Shown here: positions 1 to 47,964 of the stretch, piece after piece
Layout: each line of letters opens with the position of its first letter
Position numbering within the stretch: the first letter of the stretch is position 1
Source: Amoebophrya sp. A120
Lineage: Eukaryota > Protista > Dinoflagellata
Length of the DNA: 64,000 nt
NCBI GenBank assembly: GCA_905178155.1
Contig: CAJINV010000001.1
Location: 12,383,832 to 12,447,831, forward strand
Reading direction: 5' to 3'
Notes under the pieces: model-generated
Told to the model about the DNA's origin: nothing
Databases searched by the model: none
Seen by the model: only the letters and a program-made list of their open reading frames with translations
Made by a program: the position numbers and the translations under genes

Positions 1-820
1 GGCCAGCACACAAAATGATGGTCCAGTGTGTGGTCTTTCTCCGTTGAATTCGTGATGTCCATGTCATATCGGTTTCAGTCGGTTGCACGGATGGCACCTT
101 TTCAAGTGGTCCTGCAAATGTATTTCTGCCCTATGTATCACTATTTCTGTATTTGTCCTCTCTTTGAAGGTTCGTGTTGACAACTCTGGTTCAACGTAGA
201 TCTTTACGGCTGTGAAGATGCTCTCTCCTGCAAGAATAGAATTGAATAATATGTACAGTCGCTGCGCCATTTTATTTTCTGTTCTATGGTAGCGATCATG
301 CTCATGCAAAATGCGTTAAAGGCGTAGATCACATCCTTTGATGAAGACTTCGAATTCGTTGACACAGAGAAACAGTATAGTAAGTACTTTTTCCGACGTA
401 GTTCTCCACCATATTCTAGCTACAACAGATCTTCTGCATGAATCGGATATCGATCGACGCTTCCTTCTCCTGCCACAAGCTAAAAGCAGGTTCTTCACAC
501 AACGACGTACTTAGAGATAGTTCGGAATGAAGAAAGTAGTGCGCTGTGAATCTCTCCTGTATTGGTCCTGTATTTCTGTCCCACACTCACCACCAACGGT
601 TGCGGCTCCGCACTGATCTTTCCCCGTAAACGAAGTTTCTAGCAAGCCTCAATTTCAGACAAGCTACTTTCAGTCATCGAATGAGCAAAGCGATTGTCAT
701 CATGTTCAAAAGCAGGTATAAACAATGCTGGTGAACACCAACACTCAGTATAGCCTTCGCGAGACCGAAACACGTTCCTGGCAAAGCCCTTTGCCTACAT
801 GGCGACACTGACGGCACCAG

Positions 821-3800
821 ATGCCGCCCTCTTCTTCCTCCTCCAAGCAGAAGAAGCCGAAAGTATGCTGGTACTGGAAACACGGAGAAAAGTGCCCCAA
901 TGGTAAGAAATGCAAGTTCTTGCACTCGGAAGCTGCAGTGCCAACAGCAGCGCCCGAAAACGCAGCGGCGGCTTCCTCCGAGGGCGTGCCGGAAGATGAT
1001 TACTGGACAGAAGATGCACCAGTCGTTCACGCGAATGGCGGGGGGCCGCATGCTGCAACTTCCTGCAACGAGCAGCGAGTAGATCATCAGCATCGGGGAA
1101 GTGAAAGTGGGAAAGGACCTGCAAACATGGACTCAAATCGCCTCGACCGCCTTGAAGCGCTCCTCATACAGTGCAATGACATGCACGCAGCGGGCCTGGC
1201 GCAGGTGAATCAACGGCTAGATTACCTACTCGCTCGGGTTGAAGCACAAGAGAGCCGGGTTGACACGCTAGAGAAGTTTGTCGTCAAAGGATTCGAGAGG
1301 GTCGGCCGTCGTCTCCGCGAACTTTCCAGTGCTAATACAACGAGCATTAAAACCCAAGATGGAGCACCGCACGCAAAGCTAGTAGAAGCGCCGCCCCCCT
1401 GCCCCGCAAAGAATGATCGTTCACCTGCTCATCTCGGTTGTAATGCCCCCTGTGTAGTGAAGCAGGAAACCCCGGAACCGCTGCGCGTGCCCACCAAGAG
1501 TTGTGATAAAACTACATCCACTCCTGAGGCAAGTACACAGCAGGTGACTGAGACGCGCGTGAAGAAAAAGATTTCGTCGTCTACTGCCAGTAAATTTTTG
1601 GCTTTCATCCGCGAGGCCGGAGTACAGCTACAACCTAGCGACGAAGCTGCAGCAACAACGACCTCTCAGACTTCCAGCCCGAACCGGGAAACAGAGGTCG
1701 CAGCAACACGCGCTTCGACAGAATGCAGCGATCCGGGTACGGGACCGGTAGCTGGCTTCACTGAAACTCATGTTGGAAATGATGGGCCTAGATTTACTGC
1801 AGCCAACGAACTGCACCACGCGCAACTTCATACAATACATGAAGACGAATATGATGTGCAGCTACAACAGGAACAGATTGAACAGGACGAGTGGCAACGA
1901 AAGGCAAACAATTCAGAAGCAGACAGAGTCGAAGCACCGTTCACCCCGCCGCAAGAAATTGCTGAGCCGCCTCCTTTTTTTTCCTCGTCTTCCGTACATG
2001 ATGATGCCGACAGTTTATACATCCCGCAGCTGCAACAAGTGCAGCCGAACCAAGAGGAACTCGATGCACTGTTCGACGAACTCCCCTCCTCTCCGGTTTT
2101 CGCTGCCTTCCAAAAAGGCAACCAGTTTGCAGAGTCCGAGTTTCCGTCACTTTCTGGTCTGACCTCGAAACAGCTCGCGCAGCTGGGTCCCGCGCCATCA
2201 TCGGCCTCGATTCCGCGAAAAAAGGGCGCCCCCGCCGGAAGCCTCGCTACTCCGAACACCGGCTACACGGCTGGCACCAAAGCGGCTGCCCGAAAAACCC
2301 ACTTTTCCGAGCACGCAGCGAAGCGACGAGAGGAGTGGGGCATTACCAGCACGGATGTGCATCACACGATTGCGCGGGGAAAAAAGTCGCAGGCCAAGGC
2401 GGGACGAACGCTGTATGAAACAGAGCGGGCGCAGGTCATCGTGGAGCCAAACACACAGAAGACAATCACGGTCATGCCGCCGAAGGGGGCGCAGTTGCTT
2501 GAAGGCGGCAACTCGCGTTCGATCATAAAGACCGCAGGTGGAAAACAGGTGTTTTCCAAAATCGCGCTCGATAATGGAATCCTCGCGGAGTTGGATGCGC
2601 CTTTATTGCTTCCTTCTGATCAGACCAAAACGGCGGGAACGGAGGGAATCACCCATGCCACAACAGCCACCTCGCCCTCAGCGCACGCAGCAACACCAGC
2701 GTCTAAGATTGACAAGCACGAGGAAGCTTGGCTTGCGCGGGCCATGGAGCGCTTCCAGCCGCCGGAGCTCTCGGACCGCTATCAAATCCAGTTTACCTGG
2801 ACGGATCGTAGTGCGGAGTTCCGTCTCGAACTACAGGAGCAGAGATTCGTTTCATCCCCTGAGGAGGTGAACTGCAAGAGCAGAGACCTCGTTGACGTTT
2901 TCGAGTTGCAGCTCTCCGTTGAAGCAAAAAGCACTGCCGCAGGAGGGACGGATGCTTTTTCTGGGGGCACGACACGAACAAACGAAGCGCACCAGTCATC
3001 CTCTTCATCAAGCAAATCCTGGTCGCCGCGACATACGCTCTGGTTCCGCACACTGTGGACGTCCAACCTGGTTCAGAGCCTGAAGCAGCTGCCCGAGCGC
3101 GAGGCAAACAAGCGTCTCTCGGTGGAAAGCGTTTGCAGTGCGGTGTGGACGTTGATTCGCGGCGGGTTGTCTGCCGGACTCGAAACTTCGCGTTGGACCA
3201 TGGAGGAGCGCCGCGCCTTGAACGACGCTGATCATTCGAATGGCCGGAGACTGGCCGAGCTGGCCACCGAAACCGCCGATCTTTCGTCGAGTGGTGCCTC
3301 TACTCATGGCAGTCTGGTCTTCACTGTGTTGAAGTTGCCGTCCATTTGGGACGACGACGGCCCGAAAGTGCAACAGCTGTTCCTCTGGGACGTGGGCAAG
3401 GAGGACGCCGTCAGTGACCTCAAGTCGTTCCTTGCAACAACCATTCCCGCGTTGGACCTCCGCGATGGCCTCACGCGCGACACCCGTGGTTGCGAAGCGG
3501 CCGCTGAGCAGGGCGAAGGACCGGCGCGACCGCTGATGTTCTACGAATACGCACATGGCCTGGAGTGGATGGAGGCGCCCGTTGATGTGCATCGATTCAA
3601 GCCGGAGCCGCTGCGAACTACCGGCGATGGTTCCACCTCTGAGAGTGCGAGCGAGAATGAGCTTTACGAAGACACCATGGACCTGTCATGCGAGCAACTC
3701 GACATTGTGTCAAACAAAAACCCAACCTTCATCCAGGGCCGCGGCGGCACGGGGAAAACCACGACACTAGTCATGAAGGCCGTCGCGCACGAAATTTCCT

Positions 3801-6800
3801 ACTACGCCTCGGACAGCGGATGCGGTGCGCCGCCCTTGACGCTGATTGTCACGCAGTCGCCAACACTTTCTCGGGACATCCGCAACAAAGAGTATCCGAA
3901 GATGCGCGAACGGGTTTTGCGCGCGCTAAAAAAACGCGACAAGGAAACTCCAATAGCGGAGAAGGTGGAGCACAGCATCAGTGTGGCAGCCGGCGCGCTC
4001 CCGCAATGCCTCGATGATGTTGAGGGTGTTGGCACTTTTCCGGTTTCATTTGTGGAATTTTTACGCGTGTTCGATCGATCTATTGGTGATGGAGACTACT
4101 TTTTTGAGGACCAGGTAGACGTCCAGACAGGAACAGGACGAGAAAAGGAGGAAAGCTCGTCTACTACTGGCGGGTCGATACTCTACCTCATGGATCGGCT
4201 GCAGATCGGGAAGAGCCCAGCGGGGACCGCAGGGATAAAGCGCATACAGCAGATAGCGCCCAATCATTCCGGCGAGACCAAAAAGCGGCATCACTTAGGC
4301 CGAGAGGTCACATACCATAGATTCAAAACCCTCTATTGGGAGCGATTTCTCAATATCGAAAGGAAAAATCCCCCCTCCCCATATCGAAACGGCATGACTC
4401 CGAAAATTTGTGTTGCTGATTTGAGGCCACAAATCACGTCTGTCTTGCAAGAAGACACGCGCAGAGGCTTCCGCGCCATTATGGAAGCGATTTGGCATGC
4501 TGTAGGACCTAGGGGACAGCCGTTACCGTTTGTAATGCGAAACAACTAGACCGAAACGCCCCCACCTAGGCTGAGGATCTGGCTACGATGCTTTACTGCG
4601 TGACAGCGCGCATTTGTGTACGGAAATCCAGCATCAGAAACTTCGTCTCGATATGGGGAGGGGGGATTTTTCCTTACGATACTCAAACCAGCTGCTGCCG
4701 GCGGCTTTTCGGACGATTATGCAGTGTACCGAGAAATCTTGGCTATCAAAGCAGGGCGACGGCGGCACGAGGTAGAAACAACTTCGGCAACTGCAGCTCA
4801 TGTTACACCCGTTTCAAAAAGACCAGGACTAGCACTCTCTCTTGTTTCTGTTTGCCTTTATTTTAGCTTCTAAGTACCACTTTCCTTTCCCTCTGATTGA
4901 TTGTTCGATGTTTTGTTTCCAAATTCCACAACACAGGACCACACGAGAGCCGACGTGCTTGAGCCGCAGAGTTTCGAGCCTCTTAGCGAAAAAGAGTATG
5001 TGGAGGGCAATCAGCTGCTAGAGTCCTCCAAAACCCTCTCTAAACACGACCGTGCGACTATTTACAAGCTGTACAGGATTTACCAGACCCAGTTGCAAAC
5101 ACCCCGAACCCGCGTGGACGAACACAGCAACTCCCCCGAGCAGCTCGACAAAGAAAAGGATACCGAGTGGGACATTGCCGACTGCGTGAACGATATCTAT
5201 TGGCGGTGGAAGAGAAAGAAGCGCGCTAGTGGCGGCGTCGGCTTCCACGGGCGCCAGGTCACCGCGATGTGCGTCGACGAGGCCCAGGATCTGCTCAGTC
5301 GGCAAATCCGGCTTTTTACCTGTTTAGCAACCTCACTGGGCGCTTTTTCTATTGCCGCCGACACCGCCCAGGCGATCGAGCACGGCCGCAGCTTCTCCTT
5401 TGCCGCACTGAAAGACGAAATTCTGGGGTACTGCGCCACAGGGGGAAGTCCAAGTGACCAGCTGCAACAGCTCGACCTCCACCAGAAGAACATCCACGAT
5501 TTGAGCGAAAATTTTCGCTCGCATCAGGGACTTCTGAACTTCATGGCAGCGCTCGTGCGCCCAGTGGTCGAACTCTTCCTATCAAATGCAAATATGTCTG
5601 GGTCTGGAAGAGTGGGAGGTTTGTCATGCATCTCGTGGATCACAACGATGCTCTGGAATGCAACCAGAAGCATCACAAATTTTGCAAGAGCATCCTAATG
5701 CCAATTAGGGATGAGAAGCCTGCCTTTTGTTTGGCGAGAAATGGGTAACTTTCGCGGTTCATGCAACACAGATTTTTTCACGATTGAGATTTAGCATGCC
5801 AAGTTTGGACTCTTCCAGACCCAGACATATTTGCTATGCATACTTCCCTGACACCGATGATTTGCCGCGTGAGTGGTCCAAGAAAACAGGAACAGCCCCG
5901 ACGATGGTGGTGGGTGCGCCGCCGGATCAGTTGCTGGATATTTTGGCTCCGAGGACCAATTTGCCGCTTCGCCTCACGACGGACCACATGGTCATCGTGC
6001 CGAATGAAGCGCAGCGGCTGCTCGCTGCACAGTACTTCGAAGGCGAAATTTACACCGTCCGCGAGTGCAAGGGGCTCGGCCGCAAGGACGTGCTTTTGTG
6101 GAACTGTGTGCGGCACGACGCATCGCAGCCCGACGATGCAAAAGCGTACGACCGTCTCTGGCCCGACGTTCTGGACTTTGTCCGCCGGAGGTTGCAGGAC
6201 TTTGCGGCCCAAGGCGACGGACGGGAAGTGGCTTTTGACAGCACGCGCAGCAAGAATCCCCTTGGACTCGACGCGGACCGGTCGCTGTTCGCCATTAAGC
6301 TGAAAGGGTTGTACACGGGGGCAGCGCGCCCCAAGCAATCCTTGCTGATCTACGAGTCGGAGGCGAGTGTCGGCTCCGAAACGCTCCGGGAATACTTTTT
6401 GAAGCTCTTTCCCGAGTACGACAAACAGCGGCGGCGCTTCGAGCAGACGGCTCACCCGAACCAAGAGTCCGATCGGGGGAAGCCCATTCTGTACTACTAC
6501 GACGAAGCCCGTGCATCGTTGCTGCGGCAGCACTACGCCGGGTTTTCCTTTGACCACAGCTGGACCCGGGAGATCGACGCGATGCAGCGCCAGATCTACG
6601 ATTTGGAGTGTCAGGGTAAGTACCTGGAAGCGCTCCTACTCACCCGCGAGAGAAGCTCACAGGGGTTTGACGGCTTTATTGACAGTAGCACCAACACGCA
6701 CCGCGGGCGCCCTCCGAGCGGAATGTATGCGGTCGCAGGTACGGCCGCGCAAGACGTTGCGCAAAGGTGCGCGTGGAGCGCCAAATTTCGCGACACCGAG

Positions 6801-9800
6801 CAGCTCCTGTCGAAGCAGGTGCGCGAGTTCAGTTTCTTCGACGATAAGCGCGTATTGTGTCTTCAGGCAGGCGCGGATGCACAGAAGGCGATAGAGTTGC
6901 TAAAGCCGCTGGGAGTCGGTGTGAAGGACCTGAATGAGGAAGACAAACTGCTTCCGCTACACAAGGCAGCCGTGGCAGACTACCGGCAGGCACTGAACTT
7001 TGTCGCCAAGACCGATCCGTGGAAAGCGACCGAGATCAACGAAAAGATCCTCGGCGCCGCCCTTGCCGGATCCGACTTCCTCAGTGCGTGCTTTGGGCAG
7101 CACCTCAACGCCGCCAGATTTGCCCTGCAGGAGCTGCGCAGATTCTCGTTTTCGAAAGAGCAGATGCCGAAACTTGAGGGAGCCGTGCTGCCACTAGTTG
7201 CGAGCGCGCAGAGGTACTTAACCACTTCTACACATCTTTCATGAGAATAAGTAGAGCTGTTTTTATGTCTTTTTTAAATTTAAAACGTGATGAAGAACGA
7301 CTGCTTTGAAAATGCACAATAACACTCTACTAAAAGCATCAATCTTTCCTACCCAGGCACTTCCAGCTTGCAGCGGAGCCTCTCGAATCGGACGAAGCGG
7401 AGCAATGCCTGTGGAGCGCCTGTTCCGAGCGAGAGTTTACGGAGCTTCGGCCCGCGGAAACAAAACAGATTCTGCAGCAGAACCTCGCGACGCTCCGGCG
7501 AAAAGTTAACCCCAAAAACGCGCCAACCGTGCAGATCGCGGGCCTGTGCATTCAGTTTCGACTGTGGGAGGACGCGTTCGTGACCATCGAGCGGGCCGCA
7601 GAGCAACGGGGAAAGAAATCGAAGCGAAAGAAGCCGAAAGATCCGGAGGCCGAGGAGCACCGAAAGCGGGCGATAGAAAGTTTGATCCGACAGTGCAAAG
7701 ACAGCCACTCTGCTTTCTACTGGGAGATGTTTTTGGAAGATGAACCGCAGCGAGCCGCACGCCGCCTGCAACAGTTGCCCATCGGCAGCGCGGAGACGCC
7801 GAAAGAGCACCTTGTGGAGGGACTTCGAAAATTGACCGGCCTCGGCAGCGGGAACGACGAAAGCACGCGCATCGCTACTGCGGAACGCAGTGCGCGCTAC
7901 TTTTTCGTGGCGGCCCGAACCGCAAACTGCAGTGCTGCCGATCGGCAACCTGCGTTGCGCGTCGCGTGCGGGTTGCTGAATCACGCGTGGAAACTGAGAC
8001 TCACCGAGAAGAGGAAAGACAGCGCGAGCACAGAGCCGATTACGCAAACGCTCGGTTGGTACAAAAGCGGCTTGCTCTACCTCGCCGCGCTCGCCAGTTT
8101 GTACTGCACAGACATGCAGCAGAAGCTCGGATCCCCGGCCGACGAGAGCGCGTTTGAAAAGGCCTTGGCGGCGTACAAGGAGGAGTGTGCCAAGTTGCAG
8201 GCGATGAAATGCAACGACGCGGGGCAGAAGCTCCAAGAGGAAGAGAAGCAAAAACTAAAAGATCTGAAGTTCGAACACAACGCGGAAATGATACGCTTTG
8301 GGTTTCGAGAGAACGACTTGATGAAAGAGATGGAAAAACAAGCGGATACGCAGATGCTGCGCAGATTCCAGATCACAAAGTTCAAGCCGCTGCTGTATCG
8401 GTTTGTCGCCAAAATGGTTGTAGAAAGTGAGAAAACTGACGGCTGCTACTTCCTATGTCCTTGTTGCCAGACCAAGGAAATTGGAAGATTCATCACGTAC
8501 GAGGAATGCCACGCGAAATGGTATCTCGAGCGTGCAAGGAAGAAACAACACGAAGTGTTTCATGATTGCGTCGAGGAGGCAGACTTTGAAAACGGGGAGT
8601 GGTGCACAGAATTGGAACGACTTGAGAAACCGCTGTTAGCGCTTGCGCTGTCCTCCATGGAGAGTGAGCTACTAAAGGCCGCGGGACTAGTGAAGGAAAA
8701 GAACGCCGAGCTGGAAGACCTCGACGAAAAAGCTAAACACTTAGACGAAATATTTCTGGCCAACGTGAAATTCCCGCTGCTGGATCCGAGTACTCCGCAA
8801 CTCGGAATAGACGTCGCCCGGGCGAAAGAGTGCTTGAAAAAGCGCATGGCCAGCGTGCAGAAAAAGGTAAACAAGACCGATGGCCAATTACGCAACAAAA
8901 CCAAGATGATCACACCGCAGAGCCTAATTGATGGTCCAACGCCCCTCGTTTACGAGTGTCTCCATCTGCGATTTACCGAAGAAAAACACCAAGATGACTA
9001 CGACGTACTGGAATTCTTTCAAGAGCTGTGGCAGGACCACGACGAACCTCTGGAATTGGTGATCAAGGCAGAACGAAAGAAGCACGTCAACAGCCTCAAT
9101 CTTGCGCGTGACCAGCTGCTGCAAAAAGTTGCTCACCGGAAAGCGGACGCGCTCCAAGAATGGGAAAATGACGTCGGAGTGGACTTCTGGAGTGTGTCGT
9201 ACCATGAGGATCAACCCTACTGGGCGTTGGTGACTTTGTGTAACCGACGTCTGCGGCATGTGTGGAAGCCTTTGGTTCCTGGAAGTAAAATCGGGAATAA
9301 AACGTCGAATAGCGGCAAACAAAGGCAGTACAGAAAGCCACCAGGAGCAGCCGCTGCGTCCACCTCTACAACTGCAGATAATCTTGCGGCGGCCGCGGCG
9401 GAAGTCGCACAACAGGAACAGCTGCTCTTTCCCATGATCGATGCGTTTCTCCGATCATTTTCTCAGCTGCAGCAACCAAAAGCTAAACATAAAGCGAAAT
9501 CGGAACAGCGACCCATTGAGAGGCCCGGTGATGTTGACCCGCGCTCGACGCCCCAGACGGCGAGACTCATCGCCCACATTGGCGCGCCGGACGATTTCGA
9601 GCTCGTCTTAACGGACCCGAGCGAAGCCGTTTGGCTCCACCACGAGATTATCATGGCGGAGGCCGAACACGCAAGGATCGCGGAGAAATTCACCGACGGC
9701 CGAAAGCAACTGCAGGACGACAAACAGCGACTGCAGCTGAAACAAGAGCTTGTGATCTCGATGCAAGAGACCAAAATCCGAGAAGCGAAAAAACAGATCG

Positions 9801-10663
9801 ACGCAGACAAGGCGGAGTTTCAGGAACGGAGAAAAAAGCAGAAAGAGGAAATCGAAAACCGGGAAAACGATGTGAAGAGCCAGCCGGGGGTGCTGGAGGT
9901 GTGGTTTCGCAGGCTGCTGATCGAGGACGGAAAGATACCGGAGAACCGCAGCTGGGTCCGGCAGTTCAAGGAATCCAGCTACATGAGCTTCCTCCACCGC
10001 ATGATGTTGAAATCAGGGTCCGTCGGGAAAAAGGTGGCGGAGGTGACTTTGGGGAAACGGGGCCAGGAAAAATCCGTCGCGGTCAGCGACGTCAAGGAGT
10101 TCTTCACGAAACACGCCCAGGAGCTCTGCACAAAGATCTGCGACCACACGAGCCCAGGACGGAACGGAGTTCTCACTGTGCCCGATCTCGATAAGCCACC
10201 AACCTTCCACGAGCAAGACGAGCGCGCGGCGCGCGACATCCTCGAACAACTGGAAAGCGCAATGCCAAGGCTAATCGCGATCGACGAAGAAATAAAGGGA
10301 AAAAGTACTGCGAAAAGCGGTGGGGCTTCGGAACAACAACGATGTTCCGAACCCACCAACGACCCGGGACTGAATCCCCCCTCGTCCGCGACGAGCAAAC
10401 GAAAAACCGGGAAGAATGCCCCGAACCCGGAAAACCAAAAACCCCAAGAACGCAGACAAACTCGAAAAGAACGGCAGGAAGAGGCCCGCGCGGCGGTACG
10501 AGAGGCTGCTATTGCGTCAGCGTCCGCGTCGTTAGCAGCCTCAAGCGCGACGGAAGAAGAGGCAGAGATGCTGGAACAATCTGCCTCCGATGACGAGGAA
10601 CAGATTGAGGATCTTGTAGAAGACCCATGGAGAGTTTTTGAACGACATGACGCGATTTCATAA
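821..10663 (+). CDS. ~2977-aa protein: N-terminal CCCH zinc finger, DUF4258-like domain, TRANK1/LBA1-like UvrD (SF1) helicase, helical/coiled-coil C-terminus. Exons ~821-4353, 4687-4771, 4937-5579, 5848-7213, 7357-10663
   Basis: Motifs CWYWKHGEKCPNGKKCKFLH, Walker A IQGRGGTGKTT, Walker B CVDEAQDL, AADTAQAI, LSENFRSHQGLL, IYTVRECKGL, LYTGAARPK. Five ORF pieces join in frame (8934 nt) after removing two TIR introners and two GT-AG introns (4772-4936, 7214-7356). Junctions give YWERFLKPAAA...VYREILAIKAG and VELFPDTDDLPRE. Confidence 0.85.
4354..4681. mobile_element. Introner B1 (328 bp; C-rich TIR family), non-canonical intron in the helicase gene
   Basis: TIR TATCGAAAGGAAAAATCCCCCCTCCCCATATCGA / TCGATATGGGGAGGGGGGATTTTTCCTTACGATA; direct repeat CTCAA at 4349-4353 and 4682-4686; removal restores FLKPAAA. 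Confidence 0.93.
5580..5842. mobile_element. Introner A1 (263 bp; GTCTGGGTCTGG TIR family)
   Basis: TIR core GCAAATATGTCTGGGTCTGGAAGAGT at 5588-5613 and its complement at 5809-5834; direct repeat CTTCC at 5575-5579 and 5843-5847; removal restores ELFPDTDDLPRE. Confidence 0.93.
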
Positions 10664-10689
10664 ACATCAAACAAGTTTTTTCAGCAAAT

Positions 10690-11880
10690 CTTTCCACCAA
10701 ATGAAGTATTCCACCGAATGAAATATTCCACCGAGAACAATTCCACCACAATATAATCGATGATAAAAAGAATGGACCTATTTGTTCAATCCATCGAAAT
10801 TCGATTGGTTGAAGACTATGGGTTTTCGACTCTCTCTGATCTGGACACAAATTGATTTACCACATTCCAAGAATCTGATTTTGGATTCTAATCTTTCTAT
10901 TGATTCTGGGAAACTAAAAAAGGTATGATATTAAATTCTCCAATCATCCTGATGATTGATTTCAATTGGATGATGTTATCGATTGGATCTCTTTTATTTT
11001 TCCTCGATCTGAAAATTCGAAAGAACAGGGAAAAAAGAAATTTTCTATAATCTGTATCGATATATAAATACCTCTGATTTATTTCTTCAAAATTATTGTG
11101 TTTTTTTTTGCTGTAATTTTTTTTCTGATATGATTGGGATTTAGGATTTTCTGAGAAGAATATTGGATTTTTTATTGATTTTTTTTCCTTCGAAAATTTA
11201 TTTTGGTCTTTCCGAGATGAGATTTTCAATCTCTTTGGATCGATGAAAAGAATTTTCCGAAAGAAATATGATGATATATCTCATAGATTTCAAATCTTGA
11301 TCCTCAGAAATTATCCTCGAAATTGGATAGATACCATATGAAAGAATATGAATGATTTTTTTATTTTTTTATTTTGAATATTTATAAATATTTGATTCAG
11401 AAAAATGGAATCTGAGATATTATCGGATGAAATTGAAATCGACATGACATTATCGACATGAATAATCTCATTAGATGAATCATTCACCCAAAATTTTTTT
11501 GAATAAGAATATTTTTGATTTCTAGAAAATCATATCCACAACCAAATTCATCGAGAACCTCATCCAAAATTTTCAAAATTTTTCTCATGAAACATTCTGG
11601 AAAATAAATTGATCATGGAAGAACGAAGAATGAAACCAATGGCTATCACTATTACAGATGGATATTCAATCCTTCCAGATGAGATCGAGATTATAGATGT
11701 CAAATTCTTTCGATTTATAAAAATCGAAATCAGAAAATCATCTTCCAATTCCAAATGATGAGAAAATCAATCGTTCGGCCAACCGAATGAGGTTCTATCT
11801 ATGAAATATTCATCAAATTTTTTTCGGATTTTCATTCATCTAAAATTTGATGATATCGTTGGAATGGGATTGAGAATTAG
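10690..11880. other. AT-rich, GpC/ApC/GpT-depleted island at the convergent strand switch
   Basis: Abrupt composition change between two convergent stop codons. Hand count in 11161-11440: 0 GpC, 1 ApC, 1 GpT, 6 CpG. Confidence 0.8.
10692..10756. repeat. Short tandem repeat, four TTCCACC-headed units of 15-17 nt
   Basis: TTCCACC at 10692, 10709, 10726 and 10741; the first two units are nearly identical (TTCCACCRAATGAARTA). Confidence 0.7.
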
Positions 11881-11954
11881 TTTTCGCTCTATGGTGTAGG
11901 TAGAAGGCAGGTAGGTTTACTCAATGATGGAGTTCCTATTGTTCATGTCGGTTG

Positions 11955-14900
11955 CTATTTTTCGTCAGTATTTTGGAGCCGCTCAGTAGGATTTGTGTTT
12001 GTACCAGACTTTTTCCATTTTAGTTTTTCAAGCAATACCGAAACCGAGTCATCACACATGTACCGGGAATAATTTCTCCCAAACGCTAACACCCGGCAGA
12101 TTGCCGCAAAGGCCAACAAGGCCACTAGGGAGTTCGCAATGTGATCCGTCTCCGTGACATCAATGCCGAAATTGCTCTTCAGCACCTCTTCCCCCGTTTT
12201 GTATTGGCAGTCGTCTGGGTAGAGAACAAACTCCTCGGTGGAGCATGTGTCCAGTTTTACGTCGGTCCAAGCCCAGACAATCATCGCGTTAAAACCCCAG
12301 TAGGCCAATGACAGGTATTTCACCCACCGCATCCATACGGGCAGTAAATCCAAATCCAGCATAAACCCGTTCAGCAGCAGCATCGGGAGTAGTATCATGA
12401 GTAGTATCGCAGTCGCGATGTCCGGGTCGTCGGTCTATGGATTGTAAAAATGTCTGGGTCTGGAAGAATGGAAGGTCTGTCATGCTCTGCCAGCATGACC
12501 CCAAAGTCTGTCATGCACGTTACCCAAGAGCCTCGCTTTTTTGTCATGCAGAAAAGCAGTTTGTCATGCAGACCAGGCAACACCTCGAAGCTCACAAACT
12601 TGTCATGCTGAGCCAGCACTTGTCGCCGCCTCATGATACGCCAACCAGCATCACAAGTTTCCAGACCCAGACATTTTTACACTTGATACGGTCAGAGAGG
12701 CGACGAACGCCCCGGCCGCGTTCGCCGTCAGCATGACACATTCAGAAATCAGCAAAAAGACGAAAAACTTCTCGAAGAAGAACCCGGCCGTCACGTCGTC
12801 GTCGACGCCGAAGATGCCGTGGAACTGCACGAGAAAGCACGCGGCGATCGTGAAGAGTAACGGAAACAAAGAGGAGATCGGCAACTCCCCTGTCATGCGG
12901 CCCACCGAGAACGCGCTCAGACTGTATAGCCGCTTCGTCACAATTTCGCGCCGGAGAAACCGCGCGCCCTGGACCAGCATCGTCATGGTCTCGAACGCGG
13001 CGGAAAAATTCGGGTGCACGAAGAAGAAAAACGCCGCGCCGTGTCGCGTGTTGTTCATCTTTGGGTGCGGCGGGGTGCGGAAAAAAATCCACCCGCAAAG
13101 TGCCAGCAGCGCCCCGTTCGCGTACAAGGCTAACCACGTCTCGAACCTGCGTCGCAGGCGTGCCCGGTACGTCCGCTGGTGCAAGGCTCTCACCTGGGTC
13201 CACCAAGAGGGGCGGTCTTGCTGGTTGGAAAGAACTACACGGGTTGTAGTAGTGCTAGCGGTCGCATGAACTACGTCTTGCGCGGTCGTTGCGCCAGCTG
13301 CTTGATTCAATGCCTCGTCGTGCGCCACCACGGTATCAAGATCCGGCGGAGGCAGCATCTCCGCGTACTTGGACAAAATGCGCTTACTAATTTGCTTCGG
13401 GTTTTGGTGTTCTCCCACTGGAGGTTCACCCTCCATCGGACCGCTCCTGTCGGCCGCGTTTGTCGCAACTACAGTATCCTCATCTCGTCTGACTTCCTCT
13501 GCGCTGTCCCGTAGTGCAACATTGCTCCCAGATAATTCTCTGTAGGTCAACAGCAGCTTCTCGCGTTTCTCCTCATTCTGGATTAAGTCCAGCGCGAACT
13601 CCGCCGCGTTGTAGCCTCGGGGGAATGCAAACCCCTTGTCCGAAAGCTCGTGAGCCATGGAAAGTCCCGGGCCAAAGTAGCAGCACTCTCCCTTTCCTAT
13701 GAAGTACACTTCGCGGATATTACAATGAAAAATGTCCCCACCCCCGAACTTGAAAGCCTTTGTATTGCAAACCTTTCCAAATGAAACAGTCGCTCTCTTG
13801 CATCTATCAGCATCGCAGATTTCCGATCGTGACTAGCAAAAATTTGTATTGCAAAAGATCCCAGCAAGAGCGGCGTTTGTCATGCAAGCGCGGCGAAACA
13901 CGCCTAGACTCTGCATCAGAAAGATTTGTACTCCTTTCATGCATGACAAAAAGTTTTCATTTGGAAACTTCGCATTACAAATTTTTGCAACTTTGGGGGT
14001 GGGGGCAATTTTCCTCGCGATAGCGGAAGCGGCTGTAGATAAGTGACGACGGCTGGTGGATGGTAAACAGGATGGTTGTTTTTGCATATCATTTGTAAAA
14101 ACGTCCCCACCCCAGAGTTGTGATGCAGATTTGCAATGACAGGCACGTTTGTAATGCGCATCTCCATGAGAGGCGTTTCTAGTCGTGTTTTGGGATTTGT
14201 AATGCTGTAACCAGGATGAGCAAATGCATTTGTGACGCGTTTGTCCTTGCTAGGCTGCACTACACTACGGACTGCAACTTGTGATGCGTGAGCCCCAAAA
14301 CTTCTAGGTTTGTGTTGCAAAATCCCTAGGTTGACTCTGAGATGGGGACGTTTTTACTCAGGATATTGCATTCTGAGAATTCATTGCACTACTGTGCGAA
14401 GAGCTGGCGCCCTGTTGTTCTTCCAAGCCGTCGTCGTACAAGATATCCACCACTTCCCGTGCCATCGTGCTGTCCAGTCCGGACGTTGGTTCGTCGAGCA
14501 AAAGTACGGACACCTTTTCGTGCAAAAGCTCCTCGGCGATCGAGAGCCGCTTACGCTCACCGCCGCTGAGGAACCCGATCCGGCGGTCTCTGCAGTGACT
14601 CAGGCGCAGGCGGTGCAACACAGTCGTGATCTTCTCTTGCTGCTCCGCTTTCGAGAGGCGAAACAGCCGCATTTTCGCATGGAACTCCAACTGCTCCCCC
14701 ACGGTGACCTGGTTTTCGAAAAAATCCTCTTGCTCCACGAGCGAGACCAGCTTGACCTCCTCGGAAAACGGATAGCTTGTCGCAGCAAGTTCCTTCCAGC
14801 TAGTTCCGTTGCAAAACACGGAAATCGTGCCCGAATGTTCCGGAAACTTTTCCGCATTTGGCGTCACCTGGCCGGCGAGCATACGAAGTAGCGTGGTCTT

Positions 14901-15050
14901 TCCAGACCCCGACGGTCCCATGATGGCCAACGTTTCACCTGGCCCGACTTTGCCGCACAAACCTTTCAAAATCGAAACCTTGCTCCCGGCGCCATCGCTC
15001 GTCTCCCCGAGCTCGGAGCTCGCCGTCAGGCGGAGGTTTCGGAACTCCAT
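11955..15050 (-). CDS. ABCG (White-like) half transporter interrupted by three introners; start codon uncertain (ATG at 15050, frame open to ~15134)
   Basis: GPSGSGKTT, LSGGERKRLSIA, LLLDEPTSGLDS; spliced H-loop KTTILFTIHQPSSLIYSRFREVYFIG; ABC2 membrane domain; colinear with the intronless paralogue at 19533-22295. Confidence 0.9.
12436..12688. mobile_element. Introner A2 (253 bp)
   Basis: TATGGATTGTAAAAATGTCTGGGTCTGGAA ... TTCCAGACCCAGACATTTTTACACTTGATA; direct repeat CGGTC at 12431-12435 and 12689-12693; restores ASLTDDPDIATA; interior similar to 63503-63757. Confidence 0.93.
13718..14022. mobile_element. Introner B2 (305 bp)
   Basis: TATTACAATGAAAAATGTCCCCACCCCC ... GGGGGTGGGGGCAATTTTCCTCGCGATA; direct repeat GCGGA at 13713-13717 and 14023-14027; restores YSRFREVYF; interior is a reverse-complement homologue of 46308-46613. 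Confidence 0.93.
14087..14365. mobile_element. Introner B3 (279 bp)
   Basis: TATCATTTGTAAAAACGTCCCCACCCCAGAGT ... ACTCTGAGATGGGGACGTTTTTACTCAGGATA; direct repeat TTGCA at 14082-14086 and 14366-14370; restores NSQNAKTTILFTIHQP. Confidence 0.93.
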
Positions 15051-16233
15051 GGCGCGCTCACGATTCGAGACTGAGACGTGTCTGTTGCTGCATCTTGAAT
15101 CATTAATATTGTTTGAAGAAGCTGCTCCACGCACGTGAACTCATTGATATCTCACTTTGGTGCGGCACAGCAAGGATTTCGTTTCTGACTGTCTGACGAC
15201 CTCACATCCTCCTCAGAATTGATCCACTTCTCTGGGGTAAACACTTGAAAACAACTTACTCCGAGGTTCGACTTTGATTGCGTTCCAAGTAAAAATCGCA
15301 AACTGCCTTCAGCTTGAACAGAAAAACGAAAAACCTGCTCTTGCATGCATTGCACAAGCCGTTTTCTGCTTTTTCGAACACAAAGCGGAGTGCTCAAGGG
15401 GCCACCGGGGCTTGTTCGGTGGGTATAAACGACCACGAAGAGCAGGTGTGACTGAGGACCTTACTAGCATAGAGCGATTAGATTTGAAAATTTGAATTTC
15501 TTGCTAAAAAAAGCACGGATCCTTTAGAAATAGAAACTAACTTAAAAGACAGTCCAGATAAGCAGCTCAATACTTGAAAAACATCGATCCAGACTGCGAT
15601 TTTCTTTTTCCGTCATGGACGTCTTCTAGCCGGTTCTCATCTTTTTTTCGCAGAGCCTGAGCCAGAGTCGATGCTGTCAGTTACGATTGAATTGCAATCT
15701 GTCACGAGCAATTCGTCACTCTCCTTGCGACAAACTAGCGACTGGCCAAATTCGCGAAATAAAATTTGCGAGACTAGAAGAAGAAAAAAAGGCTGCTCAG
15801 TCTTGCTTCGACATCAACATTCTTTTTCTGTTTGATGGCTATGCTAAATTTAGCTCTTGCTGAGCATCATGCTAGGCACGTACAATGTGGCACGGAAGGA
15901 CGACCCTAGCTTCGCAGGTTCTGGCTTCAACTCGACTTCGTCTACAGCCGCACAGAAGCTGCGAAAACCTAGGATACCTCCATCTCCATCCTTCACTTAT
16001 TATATCGTGCGACTAGAAATTGGTAAAAGGAAGCTCAACGAAAAAATAAACATGTAGATCCGCGTGACGACGTGATCTGGCAGCGAAAGCGGTGCGCCTC
16101 CTGCCACTGACTTTGGTGAGTCAGCAGGTGACGATTTTACCACTAGCTGCAGGGACAAACCTTCTTATTGCTTTGTGTGCTTTTTCTTGCTTTTTTCCCT
16201 CGTCGACATTGATTGAAATTACCAAATATTCTG

Positions 16234-16951: not shown

Positions 16952-18415
16952 CTACATGATTGCGCAAACTTCGTCATCGTTTGAAGACACAACATCTGGT
17001 GCAACGGCGCTCTGTCGTAGTGTTTCCATGCGATCGTGTATCAGATCCACAGTGTCCAGGCCGAATTCCGGTATTGTTTTCTTAAACAAAGCATGGAGAT
17101 ACAACACTCCCACTAGAACTGTGTTAGTCTGATGCATCATAACAGAATGCAACGGACCGTAGTTCTTCTTTAACTCCAGCAGCCTGTACAAGATGACAAG
17201 CGCCTGATCTCTCTCCAGAGCCCGCAATAAATTCTCGCAGACCTGCTTGTTTCGGATTTTGCTAACAACTTCCACGCGTATGTTCTGCGAGGCAAGTACG
17301 AGTGGGTAGCGATCGAGTACGAAGGTTTCCTTCCATTCTACAGTCCGCCAGTCAGACAAAATCGGGTCTGAGCTGGCGTCCAGTTTCTTTATCCAATTCT
17401 GAAATCCGCCAACGCCTCCTTTCTCGAGTTCGTCAAGCAGCAAGGCCCGTTGAAATTTTTCGTAGGCGTCCCCGCCATGCATTTCATCGGCCGCCACGAG
17501 TCCGCCCTGCTTCTCCAGCTCTGACTGGCAACGAGGACAGAAACAGTTGGCACCCCAGCCGATGCGGAGCATCTCAGACCGACAACATGCACTGAGTATC
17601 AGATGATCCATGCCGACATAGGAAAAGCAGACTTCTTCACCTGGCTCGATATCCTTGATCGCAACCAACACCAAGTTCGTCGCACCGCGCACCTCGCAAT
17701 TCGGAGCACAGCTGTGATTGTAAAGACCGCCGAAGTGGTGCAATCCGTCGTCATGAGCGCACAGCTTCGCAACGGCCAGGCCACGGATCAATTCCTGGAT
17801 TTCCTTCTCAGTTGGAGAGCCACCGTGCCAACATTTTAAGCCATCTGCGAAAATTCGACGCACCTCTTTGTCGACTCGTTGCAGAGAAGCGACCTTATCA
17901 CGTGGAATTTCTTCGTAGGTTCGTGGAAACAGGCCGTTGACCTTCGCAATGTCTTCAGGCGTGGTGTTCTGCAGGTAATTCAGAAGTTTGTCCTCGATCT
18001 GAGCGTAACTGGCGTGCCAAGGGAGAACTCTTCGCTCGCCACTGATTATTTGGCCGTTTTGAATAGGGACCGTCGCACGCACCACGTATCCTCCTTTTCC
18101 GGAACGTTCCACGTAAAGCCCGGGAGTAAACTGAAAGCACAAAGGAGACGCGGTGGAGATCACTTCACAAAGTTTGACCGCACGAGAAACGTCAATCTTT
18201 CCGAGGTGCAGATGGTCAGCGACACCGATGTAGGCTTCTGTCGCACGTTTGCTACTCGCGAGGAGACGCAGTGACGTCTCGTCCAGCTGAACTGAAGTTG
18301 TCTCTTCCATGAACGCAGGAACGGGATCCATGGTGCTGGGGACCTCGCTGCGCTGACGGCTGCGAAGACGCTCTGCCTTTGTATCATGAGGATGAAAAGA
18401 GTCCGGTGATGTCAT
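16952..18415 (-). CDS. SET-domain (SMYD-like) lysine methyltransferase
   Basis: KGGYVVRATVPIQNG, LYNHSCAPNC, AIKDIEPGEEVCFSYV, post-SET CFCPRC; first in-frame ATG at 18415. Confidence 0.85.
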   Translation of the reverse strand: MTSPDSFHPHDTKAERLRSRQRSEVPSTMDPVPAFMEETTSVQLDETSLRLLASSKRATEAYIGVADHLHLGKIDVSRAVKLCEVISTASPLCFQFTPGLYVERSGKGGYVVRATVPIQNGQIISGERRVLPWHASYAQIEDKLLNYLQNTTPEDIAKVNGLFPRTYEEIPRDKVASLQRVDKEVRRIFADGLKCWHGGSPTEKEIQELIRGLAVAKLCAHDDGLHHFGGLYNHSCAPNCEVRGATNLVLVAIKDIEPGEEVCFSYVGMDHLILSACCRSEMLRIGWGANCFCPRCQSELEKQGGLVAADEMHGGDAYEKFQRALLLDELEKGGVGGFQNWIKKLDASSDPILSDWRTVEWKETFVLDRYPLVLASQNIRVEVVSKIRNKQVCENLLRALERDQALVILYRLLELKKNYGPLHSVMMHQTNTVLVGVLYLHALFKKTIPEFGLDTVDLIHDRMETLRQSAVAPDVVSSNDDEVCAIM

Positions 18416-19532
18416 TCTGCTGCTGCTTCGTAAAAGTGCTGCTCGCGGTTGTAGTTCGGGTTGGTGTAAAAACAACGACGTGCCGACAAAGAAAATGGAG
18501 GCGCTTCTATATATTTTGTTGGTTTCGCTGCTGCTGTAAGAACACAGATTAATAACGTCAAAGACAAACAGCCCTAAGCTTTAGAGAGAAAGATAGTCTA
18601 CGACACCTCGTGTCCACGTTACTAGCCCTGTAATCATTGCAAATGTTTCACGTTCATGTGATCAATCAGGCTAGTCCTGTAGGCGTAGACTTTGGATCAG
18701 TGTCGTCATTTGGGATCACGGTGGTACGGGATCCCTTGATCCTGATTCAGCTGATGATCTATGCCAACAGCTGCGGCAACCTCGACGGCGTCCCTAACCG
18801 TAATGTGAAGCGATCGAGATCTTGGAAGTTGTGAGCACCACAGTCACAGATCACGTCGAGATCTTCTACCAACAAAATCTATTTGTGTTATGGTCCTCGA
18901 GATAGAGGAGAGTCTTGTCGAGGAGGAGACGTAGAGGCACTTGGCTTTTCGTGCCAGCTACGGACACGGTAGTTAGTCCACCGCATCCATCTACTTGAAT
19001 TTGTCGGACATTCCATGGCGCGTTCTTTCACGCTTTGAGATCATTAAGACGCAACTGTTGCAGCATGAACGATTTTCTTTTTTGAAGCTGCACCTATTTC
19101 AGTTCATACATCATGATCTTGGTCAAGCACTGCAAGGTCATTTTGTTCCTAAGTGTCTGACGACCTCGCATCCTCCTGCGGATTGATGTAAGTACTTGCT
19201 TCTCCGGAGTACACAGTTGGAAGCAACGAGATCAGACTTTCGCGTCCAAAGAAAGAGTCGCAGACGGAGTTCTTCATGTGAGTCCGCAATAATTGCACCA
19301 ATGTGGCAGCGCCCTGGTCCGCAAAACAGAGGGAGCAATGGTTGCAAAAAAATGAACTACTTCGAATGCGGTCGTGCAGTCGTGGAGATACTCGAATGAA
19401 AAAATGCAATCAGATTCATCCATGTGATTTGTATGTTGCGCGACAGGACTTCACTTTCCTAAAACTCAAACTGAAAGCGACAGAAATCACTTTGGGTCTC
19501 CCATAACTCAAGCTTTCGCTTCCTCTTCTACT

Positions 19533-32335: not shown

Positions 32336-35300
32336 TCATGGCATAGCCGTGTCCACGCGGCTCGGCTCATCCTTGTCCCCTGCACTGGAAAATCCCACCT
32401 GCTCCGGGGCCGCAACGTCGACCAAATCCGGATCTTCAGCTAGGAGATCAGACACAACTTCACGAATGTCTCGGTTGGTTAACTTGTGCGCCCGAGCACT
32501 TTTCTCGACGTCCTTCGTTCGCATGCTCAGCGTTCCGTGCCCCTTCATCGCCGCGGCATCCAGAATTTTTTGTGCTCTAGCCCGATCGCCCGTCCGCCAC
32601 GAGGCCAGCGGAACCGCTCCCAGTGACTGCTCTGCCCGCAACAGCTCGCCCAGGCGCCTTGGCGACAAATTTCCCTTAATCATGTCCAGAACAACGCGGG
32701 TCAAGCAAGCTAGTCCGATTGAGCGCGGATGCGCAGGACCGAATTTCTCGACGACGTTGAACCACCGCGCAGTGACTTTCCCCGTTATGCCGCTGGACGT
32801 CTGCAACCCACCACCGTGTTGCGTATACCGTCGAAACACAGCAAGCATGACGTCCTCAAGCAGATTGTCGTCGTCAAGTTCCCCAACGGTGCGCGCCAAG
32901 TTCTCTTCTATCCCGAAGTCTTCGTCGAGCGTGCTGTTGCTACCAAGCAATGGGGCCCTGTTTTTGGAACTCGTCGCGCCACTACTGGAGGAGGACGCGG
33001 TAGAGCCAACCTGCTGCGCAAGCGCGCCGGGCTTTTTTTCTTCTTCCCCCGCGTCAGCCGCGTCGCCTTTTCTGGTGCTGTCCGTCAGAAAGTCTTCGAT
33101 CTGCTTCACACGTCCAGCCCAGTAATCGTCCCCGAGGTTCCAGCAGCGGATCTGGCTCCTGCCGTTCTTGCCCAAGAGAGTCAGGAGGTCGGTATTCCAG
33201 CAGACCCAGTTCAGGTCGCCATCGTAGTCGCCTCCGCGGAATTCATCCGCGCCCCCGCGCTCACAGTTGTCCGGGTGCGCCGCAAGGATCAGCAAGCTTA
33301 TCAAGTGCAAATATGTCTGGGCCCGGATCTGGAGGAAGGTTGCATGATCATTTGTCAAGATAAATCTTTTTTGATTTTGCATGCAAAAATTTGCATGAAA
33401 ACATTTGTCAAGATAAATATACCGCCCGGGCTTCGCATAGCCTAACGGGCCTGCCATGCGCGCTCGAGCACCGCAAGTGATGGCTCCGCGTCCGCAAATG
33501 CAAGTCCTATCCTGCATGACACACGTTGCCTCGGGACGCCACAAAGTGCGTGGCTTTTGCTGCTCACAAATTACAGACTTCTGGGACTTTTGTGTCTCCC
33601 AGACCGAACACGCAAAACACTTCCTCCAGGCCCAGACATATTTGCGTCTGATATGGTTTTTACCCGTGCCAAACCGACGCGCAAGCTCCTCCTTGTAGAC
33701 AAAGCGGACCAGCTGCAGGTCCGTGGGCAACACCGCCGGCGTCGCTCCCACGACGCACCAGCCGCGGAGGTACTTATCTTGTCCGTCCTTGTCGCGAAAA
33801 ACGAGCTGGGCCTGTCTCCTCTTTAGAAGTCTACCGGTGTAGTCGTAGGCGACGTGGAAGAAACCGCTGTCCTTCATTTTGTACTGCGGCTTTTTCCGCA
33901 GCCTCTCCGCCTCCTGGAGCTGACTCTTTGCCTCTACTGTCCACAAATGAATCTGCGACGTCTCTTCAAATCCGGCATCTTTCAACCGACTCAGGAACTC
34001 GTGCTGCCCGCGCTGCGCATCCCCCGCCGGAAAGGGGTTTCGGTCGCCCGCTGCCTTGGCCTGCGCCGCCTTTGCCTTGCGCCTCTCCTCGTGCACGGCC
34101 TTTCTTTCCTTCTGCAAAGCCCGGGCGTACCGTGCGTCATCCGCCCCCGCGTCGTGGAACTGCAGTGGCCGGGCCCCGGGTTTGACATCTTTGTCCCGGT
34201 TTCGTTCGGCCGCCGATCCAGGCTTCGGATCATCGTGCTCGTGCCCTCCGTCTTCTTCGCCGCTCCGCAAGGCTGCATCCACGCTTTCTGCTGGGGCCGC
34301 TGCATCTCCGTCTCGATCTGCAGAGGAGGACTCGGACGATGCCTCGCTGGAAGCAGAGCCTGAATCCGATGAAGTTTCCGTTTCTGTGTCGCTTTGTTCG
34401 GCAGAGGAGCTTGCTAGCATATCTTCCGGATCGTCCTCGTTTGTGTCTCTTTGCTCCTTTGCTCCAGTGCCTGCGCCGTGAGCGCTGGAGCTGCTGGCCG
34501 TCGCACCATCCGGATGCTGAGCGCCCTGATTGTAGTTGCAGTTGTACTTGTAGCAGTTAATTGGCACGAAGCATCAGTTTTCCGCTAGACAGTGACAGAG
34601 ACCACGATCTTGAAGTATACTACCTGTATCTACCTACTTAAAACAATGAGTAAACAACGATGTCGACACTTTGGCTTTTTGTTTTTTGTAGATCGATGCA
34701 AAAATGAAAAAACTTTGTATCTCTACCTGTTTCCGCAGAGCCACCGGAGAAGAGTCCAGGGACAGACCGGGGTCGTGAAGCTGCAGCGTGTCTTCCTTCT
34801 TCCGCTTCTTCGGGTTTTCCGCTGGAGCATCGAGAGTCGTCGCGGCCTTCTTGCTTTGATTGCCGATCTTCTTCTCCAGGTCTACGAAGTGGAACTTTTC
34901 CTCCCAATGGCTGTCGTGCAGCCCCTCCAAAAACTGCAAGAACGCCTCCCGCTTTGCGTGGTTCACAACAAACTCGCCCGCCTGCGCCTCATCTGCAGAT
35001 GCCTGGAAAAGCTGCACTGCGTCGCCCGCCACAACTGCAGACCTTTCCCCCTTCTCCGGCGTCTGTGGCTCCGGGGTTTCGCCGCTTTTCTTTTTGGCGG
35101 GGCCCGCGCTCTTCTGCTGCTTTTTTGCCCTTGTCTTCCGCTCCTTTTTGGAAAGCCTTCGCTTCCCCCACATTGCCTTCTTGCTGTCTTTCTGCGTGCG
35201 CGGACCGGTGTCGACGTCTTTCTTCGGCAAAGTCTCCCTCCATTCCCAGGCACAGAGAAACTCGAGAAGTGGCAGGAACTGCGCATTGAGCGTTCGATCC

Positions 35301-45758: not shown

Positions 45759-47964
45759 TCACAGGTACCCCTCTCGCAGCCAGCGGTGCTTGCAGTGGTT
45801 GCGCATGATGGAAAGCAGCGTGTGCCGCTTCGTGGAGTCGACGACCTGAAACGCGAGCAGCGTACTGGGTGACGACCGGACACTTTGGAGCTTCCTGGAT
45901 ATTACCGAGTCGAAGATCTGGCCGCGCAAGCGACGCTGGCGCGTTAGATCCTTCTCGTCCTCCTCCCCGCTGCCGTCGTTGCAAAGCAGTGCCACGTATG
46001 CACTGCAAATATGATGTCTAGGTCTGGAAGAGTGTCTCTTGCAGGTTTTCCATGACCCTTGAGGTCCGGAATGCGGGACCTAGCATGACAGAGTCTGTGA
46101 GGTCTCTGCCATGCCTATGCTGCATGAGAAACTCCCTCCCAGCTTGGTCGAAAGTGGACAGCTTGTGGCACTCATGCAACACAGAGTTTTGCATGATTCG
46201 GATTTAGCATGACAAGTTGCAATCTTCCAGACCCAGACACTTTTGCAATCCATACCACGCGCACCTCGAAAAAGCAGGGGTTGTCCGGTGCCGGCGGCCG
46301 TGCTGGATATTACAGTGAAAAGTGCCCCCCACCCCTCAAATTGCAAAAATTTGTGATGCGGAGTTTCCAAATGAAAACTTTTTGTCATGCATGAAACGAG
46401 TATGAATCTTTCTGATGCGGAGTCTAGGCGTGTATCGCATCGCTTGCATGACAAGCGCCGCTCTTGCTGGGGTCTTTTGCAATACAAATTTTCGCTATTC
46501 ACGGTTGGAAACCTGTGATGCTGATAGGTGCAAGAGGGCGAATGTTTCATTTGGAAAGGTTTGCAATACAAATGCTTTCAAGTTCGGGGGTGGGGGGATT
46601 TTTCCTTTTGATACTGGATTGGCGTTGTTGCGAGGACTTCTCCCAGTAGCTGTGGTGGACGAAGAATTTGTACTACTTCTCAACTTCGCCCTCTCTTTTT
46701 CCGGCACCCGCACGTCGCAGGAGAGCAGAATTGCATTTCCAACCAAATCGATTGTCGACACGTAATTTCCAAACCGGACCTTCTCCTCCAGTAAGGGCTC
46801 CAGCACAGGCTGGTTTGCACTTTTTTGATCTGCAGAACTGCTCGTTGCTGCTTCCTGTTGAGACGATGAATCTCCGAGATCTAGCTCCACAGTGTACTCT
46901 TCCTCTGTGTCCAAGGTTTTGCACGCGGTTTCATAGAGCTCCCGCAGCGTGCTGCCACAAGCCGCCCAAGGCCCACTGCGCGGATCCAGCGACGCGACAC
47001 TGTTGCCTTCGGAAAGGGAAGCGAGAAAGCTAGCGAATTTCGACACTCGCACCGCTGTGATTGTCGGTTTCGTGGTACAACTACCGGAGCATGCGCTTTT
47101 ACTCGAAATCTCTTGCTGCGGGGGTGAAAGGCGCTGCTTATTTGAAAATCCAGCGAGATGTGACGCAGTGTGTAGTCCTGGCTCACCCTCGCACAGGCTG
47201 CTCGCTTTCTTCAAGCGACCAGACTGCAACCCGTCCTTGTCAGCAACGGTAGGCCCCGCAGAATCAGCATCGTCGACCACGGGGTCGTGTGCCAAGCTGA
47301 AGATCTCTGAGTGAGCATTGTTCGTGAGCAGGACGTAGGCCGGTCGGTGCTCCTTAAACTCTGTCTCGATGAATTCGTCGTAACCATTGCGTAATGGTAA
47401 GTGTTCCACATCATCTAGATCTTCTTCAGCCCCCTCTTCTCGCGGACTCGCCCCATCTTCAGGGTTTGTGCAAAAGGAAGTGGATGCGGACAAGGATCCT
47501 CGGCTGCTGGGCGCCGTGGTTGGCGATAGCGCGCAGTCCGCGAGCTTGCACTGCTCGTCGTGGAGGATGGTCCCGCACGGAAGCATGAATCGCAGGTCCG
47601 TGCCACGCACGTGCAAGTCCTGTCGCAACTCGCCCAACGTGGCGTCCGGCCGCGCCCTGCAGAGAAGTGTTCCTCCCGGAGACACGATGGGGACTGCATC
47701 TACTTCGTAGTTGAGGTGAAACTTATGCTGATCATCCCCGTCGGAGGCCTGATGGAGATCCGGGACATCGTCCAGGGGCTTCGGAATCTCGCGAGCAGTG
47801 CCGGCCCTGCTGGAGGAGGGCTCCCCCTGCGGCACAGTTGCACGGGCGGACAATAGCGCAATGCGGACGGACTCCACGGTTGTCGCGCTTGTAGAGATAA
47901 GGACGAAGAGTTTGAAAACCTTCCGCGCAAGGTAACCGGCATGCTGTTGCCGCAACGCCGCCAT
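45759..47964 (-). CDS. Hypothetical protein with two introners flanking a micro-exon
   Basis: ORF 46495-47964 joins a short exon and ORF 45759-45995 in frame after removing both elements: NANPARPPAPDNPCFFEVRVALLCNDG. Confidence 0.75.
45997..46254. mobile_element. Introner A4 (258 bp)
   Basis: TATGCACTGCAAATATGATGTCTAGGTCTGGAAG ... CTTCCAGACCCAGACACTTTTGCAATCCATA; direct repeat CCACG at 45992-45996 and 46255-46259; interior similar to 57490-57751. Confidence 0.92.
46308..46613. mobile_element. Introner B5 (306 bp)
   Basis: TATTACAGTGAAAAGTGCCCCCCACCCC ... GGGGGTGGGGGGATTTTTCCTTTTGATA; direct repeat CTGGA at 46303-46307 and 46614-46618. Confidence 0.93.

Follow-up and report, generated by a model that had tools for sequence, protein, structure and literature searches.

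In a window of 64,000 nucleotides from the genome of Amoebophrya sp. A120, we identified an AT-rich island that fills the gap between converging genes and in which cytosines preceded by a purine (RpC) are strongly depleted on both strands. The signature is real, sharply bounded and unusual. Low-GC convergent junctions are already known in Symbiodiniaceae, and we found no published account of the purine-C context bias. The island is likely this lineage's version of the dinoflagellate low-GC convergent strand-switch region, and we consider the chances about even that RpC-specific mutation has eroded a convergent-junction boundary on the spot.

Composition and limits of the island

Direct counting over 11161-11440 gave 28 C, with 0 GpC, 1 ApC, 1 GpT and 6 CpG, exactly the figures of the original prediction that had drawn attention to this region. 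Over 10690-11880 (GC 29%), the observed/expected ratios were 0.12 for GpC (n = 3), 0.50 for ApC (n = 30) and 0.24 for GpT (n = 15). TpC and GpA were enriched (1.65, n = 104, and 2.06, n = 123; TpC/GpA enrichment 1.84-fold), CpG stood at ∼1.1 (n = 28) and TpA at ∼0.47 (n = 70), and the value of 1.13 for CpA/TpG indicated that CpA was kept. A change-point fit placed the limits at 10655-11879, and both strands of this segment together hold 56 purine-preceded C against 177 ± 9 in 2000 base shuffles (minimum 147). The remaining RpC were distributed as 36/179 on the + strand and 20/175 on the − strand, a weak difference (p 0.03) with no flip at the centre. In addition, the lowest GC among the 128 bins of the window, 0.256, falls at 11001-11500, and the window mean is 0.53. 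The island-versus-background score reached 245 and the next-best segment 15, a score inflated because the scoring model was trained on the island itself. It had also been claimed that other intergenic DNA of the window looks different; the tandem intergenic DNA (11 stretches pooled, 45% GC) indeed had an RpC fraction of 0.51, so that the island bias is not a by-product of AT-richness.

The fairly sharp edges would suit the decayed remains of a foreign insert (from a virus, an organelle or the host) or of an old mobile element whose bias was its own, and so would the longest frame of the island, 127 codons on the − strand, which was matched in 4/200 dinucleotide and 16/200 trinucleotide shuffles. 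Maverick elements, moreover, lie at ∼11% of Breviolum boundaries according to the available part of PMC11071213. Such an origin nevertheless appears quite improbable. No match to the island was found by DNA similarity in a phage collection, and a plasmid collection gave a single 35-bp match, judged to be chance. A search for viral relatives of the 127-codon frame found none, none of six island frames tested against Pfam reached E < 0.05, and the four weak Rfam matches each fell under the gathering score. Internal repeats, palindromes and 3-base or 10-base periodicity did not exceed trinucleotide-preserving shuffles, a search of the island for a recurring motif found none, and a 33-bp inverted pair (11256-11288/11797-11828), the best of the island, was rejected as not significant (reached in 8/100 shuffles). 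Furthermore, the composition of the island is readily derived from local intergenic DNA.

Flanking genes, continuity and transcripts

The island occupies the only convergent strand switch within the window (Table 1). On the left, a stop codon (TAA, 10661-10663) closes the last ORF of the + strand coding region, which carries a UvrD-helicase Pfam match (1.3e-05) and a zf-CCCH match; zf-CCCH_4 scores under its own cut-off, and the left protein had no usable match in the ESM Atlas. On the right, the − strand block closes with the ABCG-type gene, whose stop codon is the TAG at 11955-11957. The RpC bias begins and stops within ∼60-75 bp of these two stop codons. Strand calls by a codon model, trained partly on ORFs from the same 64-kb window, gave 43 "+", 0 "−" and 16 uncalled among 59 windows to the left, and 126 "−", 0-3 isolated "+" and 159 uncalled among 288 windows to the right. 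Both the stops and the calls agree with the earlier claim that the island fills the gap between a + gene and a − block. The − strand extends for 52 kb to the right; since the window shows no more than ∼10 kb of + strand to the left, the island is a candidate rather than a proven boundary between two long blocks. Amoebophrya genomes are described in the available part of PMC7789003 as introner-rich and organized in unidirectional gene blocks, with which the window, rich in inverted-repeat introns, agrees. The nearest named relatives of a second ABCG protein of the window are also from Amoebophrya (37% and 31% identity in A120, 29% in A25), and these relatives and the introners bear out the dinoflagellate context that the original prediction had assumed from sequence alone.

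A composition that differs from the rest of the window might also betray a misassembly or contaminant, a doubt that the original prediction had itself raised. This is hardly credible. One 6648-nt unitig of run X1, which may be the source of the assembly itself, spans 8800-12460 with 0 differences at a flat depth of 27.7, confirming continuity across both edges; the island is therefore joined to both genes and single-copy. Within the island, the same run gave only small chance additions to the unitig cover. In addition, an independent marine metagenome (X9, from a separate study) contained two contigs of 151 nt that match 10456-10606 and 10680-10830 without a difference. Beyond 3 records at least 99% alike, other X9 records were short and below 95%, and there was no diverged homologue among them; 0/526 pattern hits to the orthologous left-gene locus were confirmed in metagenome contigs. 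Neither search yielded a diverged homologue from which to draw a mutation spectrum.

RNA-type contigs cover the left gene as far as 10682-10719 and resume over the right gene at 11937-11986, and a contig of set X3 (record 11) joins the ABCG gene with its introner spliced out. The stretch 10720-11936 had no cover in the RNA-type sets X3-X6; because these derive from one sample of one study and consist of contigs only, this gap is not used as evidence of silence. None of the sets is recorded as RNA. Sequence cover was drawn from 8 of 12 runs, among which the raw RNA runs X10 and X11 gave 0 and 3 reads.

Table 1. Features of the analysed window (coordinates within the 64,000-nt stretch).
Feature	Coordinates	Strand	Evidence and remarks
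Left flanking coding region (one gene or more)	812..10663	+	Multi-exon, large; ORFs, Pfam, RNA-type contigs
Left gene 3' flank	10664..10719	+	RpC content normal, 8/19 C after purine; covered by RNA-type contigs X3-X6
17-bp tandem, 2.5-3.4 copies	10692..10747		Left island edge; Tandem Repeats Finder score 63-72
RpC-depleted AT-rich single-copy island	10720..11879		48/334 C after purine, GC 29%
Island core, strongest depletion	10955..11854		31/245 C after purine, GC 27%
ABCG gene 3' flank	11880..11954	−	RpC content normal, 15/33 C after purine
ABCG-type transporter gene	11955..15140	−	Pfam ABC2_membrane + ABC_tran; spliced contig X3
Inverted-repeat introner within ABCG gene	12436..12688		High-copy family, RpC normal; internal control against RIP
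Introners 1-6	4354-4681, 5580-5842, 12436-12688, 13718-14012, 14087-14365, 33299-33653		Inverted repeats
Introners 7-12	46014-46254, 46319-46613, 51899-52177, 57490-57752, 62691-62948, 63503-63757		Inverted repeats

Models of mutation and selection

We simulated forward mutation of intergenic DNA taken from the window itself, applying nine rules, and compared the products with the island by KL. Rules hitting purine-preceded C were the closest of the nine (KL 0.007-0.036), with 0.007 for RpC to RpT/A and 0.026 for RpC to RpT. The other rules gave 0.064 (C kept only after T), 0.098 (any C to T), 0.154 (GpC only), 0.163 (CpG decay) and 0.168 (RIP at CpA), the last being the poorest fit of all from both starting sequences (0.168 and 0.304). 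G statistics over ten dinucleotide classes, for which sampling noise had a mean of 7 and a maximum of 16, were ∼176 for uniform AT drift, 62-69 for RpC to RpT alone, 14-17 for a mix of RpC to T and A, and ∼5 for RpC to RpT with added TpA loss. The best-fitting models take away ∼3/4 of purine-preceded C, and their trinucleotide fit is imperfect (G ∼61 versus a noise maximum of 49). Among the models tried, which presuppose a starting sequence and were chosen after the data were seen, only RpC-targeted ones reproduce the island composition, and the 5'-purine rule is robust.

Two ordinary explanations can be rejected on these figures, as the original prediction had held: CpG methylation decay, CpG being not depleted and the model fitting poorly, and plain AT drift, whose G lies far above the noise maximum. 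The proposed change of RpC to RpT on both strands stood in part. A symmetric, RpC-targeted loss was upheld, whereas conversion to RpT alone fits badly and the T/A mix fits. An obligatory share of C-to-A changes was withdrawn, since RpC to RpT plus TpA loss fits. Composition alone separates neither transition from transversion nor mutation from selection.

Accordingly, selection might keep the DNA poor in RpC and rich in TpC/GpA and A/T tracts, whether for protein binding, melting, bending or as thymine sites for 5hmU. A model of RpC avoidance lowers G from the 176 of AT drift to 34 when it has one parameter and to 22 when it has two, the enrichment of TpC/GpA would be expected, and Crypthecodinium 5hmU has been reported to favour TA and TC (cited in PMC11572971, available part). 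We regard this explanation as rather improbable: its fit is worse than that of the mutation models (G 5-17), neither a recurring motif nor periodicity was found in the island, TpA, likewise reported as a 5hmU context, is depleted, and 5hmU in Breviolum, enriched at convergent boundaries, is without sequence preference in the part of PMC11071213 available.

Comparison with known context-specific processes

Fungal RIP acts on duplicated sequence and has a CpA-to-TpA bias, by which CpA goes down and TpA up. Like the process considered here, it removes C from both strands, locally and in a specific context, and leaves an AT island behind; its context, however, is CpA, TpA becomes enriched and repeats are hit, whereas the island has a 5' purine context, depleted TpA and single-copy sequence. 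The 12 multi-copy introners of the window retain a normal RpC fraction (802/1552). Because these were untouched, the island is single-copy, CpA was kept and TpA was low, neither RIP-like hypermutation nor a dead repeat, both put forward in the original prediction, is supported.

AID-type deamination targets the WRC motif, with A/T at −2. At convergently transcribed DNA it resembles the island in the purine 5' of the lost C, in affecting both strands and in the convergent setting. The island differs in having no A/T preference at −2 (in the core, C/(C+T) after NA was 0.10, 0.09, 0.06 and 0.09 with A, C, G and T at −2), and we know of no such enzyme in the lineage. Methylation in Amoebidium was rejected as a GpC precedent, its context being CG instead. 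In Symbiodinium, methylation is in CG, with CH at ∼1% (PMC5890265, available part).

Convergent boundaries in dinoflagellates

The Hi-C boundaries of Symbiodinium microadriaticum are located at convergent sites, and only there does GC fall by ∼10% (PMC8110479), and the GC dip is repeated in a review (PMC11453091), both as far as the available text of these sources goes. The strand-switch regions and dinoTAD boundaries of Symbiodiniaceae thus share with the island a dinoflagellate lineage, a position in the gap between converging genes and a GC minimum (available parts of PMC8110479 and PMC11071213). The island has both testable features of a dinoTAD boundary, namely a place between converging genes and a local GC minimum. 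It differs in being 1.2 kb long, sharp and ∼24 GC points under the window mean, versus ∼6-10% there, and in that its GC deficit comes from one dinucleotide class; we found no context bias described for Symbiodiniaceae boundaries in the available parts of these papers. Kinetoplastid base J, which occurs at convergent strand-switch regions and to which Breviolum 5hmU has been likened, is similarly a special DNA state at the ends of unidirectional arrays (PMC11071213, available part). Base J differs in being a thymine modification. We know of no C-loss signature for it.

How such an island might arise can be outlined as follows. Ordinary intergenic DNA would be the start, ∼3/4 of its purine-preceded C having since been lost. 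First, head-on ends of transcription may put the DNA into a special state, whether because transcription reads through from either side, because torsional stress builds up or because a base is modified. Second, an enzyme preferring a 5' purine, either a cytosine methyltransferase or a deaminase, could mark or deaminate RpC at the junction; deamination would turn RpC into RpT and, over both strands, GpC into GpT and then ApT. Third, the TpA steps so created would be lost in the way that TpA is across the genome. The island may serve in transcription termination or in insulation of chromatin domains.

Generality in a sister genome

A sister sample was drawn from metagenome assembly JACKZZ01 as 145 loci (L001-L145) fetched by an introner-end pattern, ∼566 kb in size (∼566,000 distinct 31-mers). 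These loci and the window have introner families in common at ∼68-92% identity, and the single JACKZZ01 protein tested was 87% identical to its A120 counterpart, from which we conclude that the loci belong to a close sister Amoebophrya. The sharing of families was observed despite the label of introners as strain-specific in the available part of PMC7789003.

Across 2678 500-bp windows of the sister genome, RpC averaged 0.51 ± 0.04 with a minimum of 0.36, compared with 0.11 in the island core. Since none of these windows fell below 0.36, the island type is rare, and rarity is what an association with convergent block junctions, or with some scarcer feature, would predict. For A120, 516 blocks in 115.5 Mb are given in the available part of PMC7789003, which by arithmetic puts a convergent junction every 450 kb or so. 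A single segment of the sister loci exceeded the threshold, L072:4901-5067 (167 bp, GC 32%, RpC 0.25, score 26.5), and was rejected as an island for being short, weak and away from any visible switch.

The sole credible convergent junction in the sister sample, at L070 ∼17700-18000, has no AT/RpC island, which counts against a mark at every convergent junction. Its two genes apparently meet at an introner, with hardly any intergenic DNA or none between them, and it may be a lone inverted gene, because 1.5% of A120 genes lie outside blocks (PMC7789003, available part). At L070 15400-18000, the + strand gene is seemingly broken up by some eight introners, lying back to back, that leave very short exons. 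Other junction candidates were rejected: strand calls were weak at L022, L026 and L027, and at L061/L062 the + segment duplicates a neighbouring − gene in inverted orientation, possibly an artefact. The inverted copy (L062 4337-5638 and 11930-16018) comprises the 5' part of a repeat-rich gene and is either a real duplication or an assembly chimera.

Short AT-rich or GC-trough centromeres occur in Plasmodium, diatoms and some yeasts. The short AT-rich regional centromeres of small-genome eukaryotes resemble the island in being ∼1 kb long, AT-rich, unique and non-coding, and we know of none with RpC specificity. The convergent gap could thus happen to house a small regional centromere, or some other locus present once per chromosome, whose chromatin would set the mutation pattern. 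The island is 1.2 kb, AT-rich, single-copy, non-coding and non-repetitive, and nothing similar was found in the ∼566 kb sister sample or at its L070 junction. We consider a centromere unlikely. Convergent junctions are far commoner, a GC dip at convergent sites is already documented in dinoflagellates (PMC8110479, available part), and no centromere-specific feature was seen in the island. If islands did occur once per chromosome, they would be the first centromere candidates for Syndiniales.

Against the boundary eroded in place stand the single island (n = 1), the contrary L070 junction and the known methylation of dinoflagellates, which is in CG with low CH. A wider proposal, that Amoebophrya marks its converging gene-block junctions by an undescribed RpC modification or deamination whose signature maps termination and domain boundaries or centromeres, is possible and, in our judgement, doubtful. 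On how dinoflagellates end transcription of long one-way blocks, and on what in their DNA sets domain boundaries, the available parts of the cited papers report only a mean dip in GC and an enrichment of 5hmU. If the proposal were true, a sharp RpC signature would offer a sequence handle on termination and boundaries in a small-genome, early-branching lineage, and would suggest a cytosine-modifying activity in a context that we have not found described for eukaryotes. In the mostly open-access literature on Amoebophrya, supplements aside, we found no report of RpC-depleted islands, convergent-gap composition or centromeres, and the available parts of PMC5890265, PMC9998398 and PMC11572971 make no mention of Amoebophrya.

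Other features of the window

The window contains no fewer than 12 inverted-repeat introners, ∼240-350 bp long, which belong to several families and are of a type known for Amoebophrya; introner patterns gave 0 hits in viral and prokaryote collections. The family of the spliced introner in the ABCG gene is very high-copy. A gene for a eukaryotic RNA-dependent RNA polymerase (PF05183) lies at 32339-35641 on the − strand and suggests RNA-silencing machinery, and Pfam identified a SET-domain gene at 16955-18580. Finally, an AT-rich intergenic stretch at 56145-56203 carries a short TCGAAA tandem and is mildly island-like in composition.
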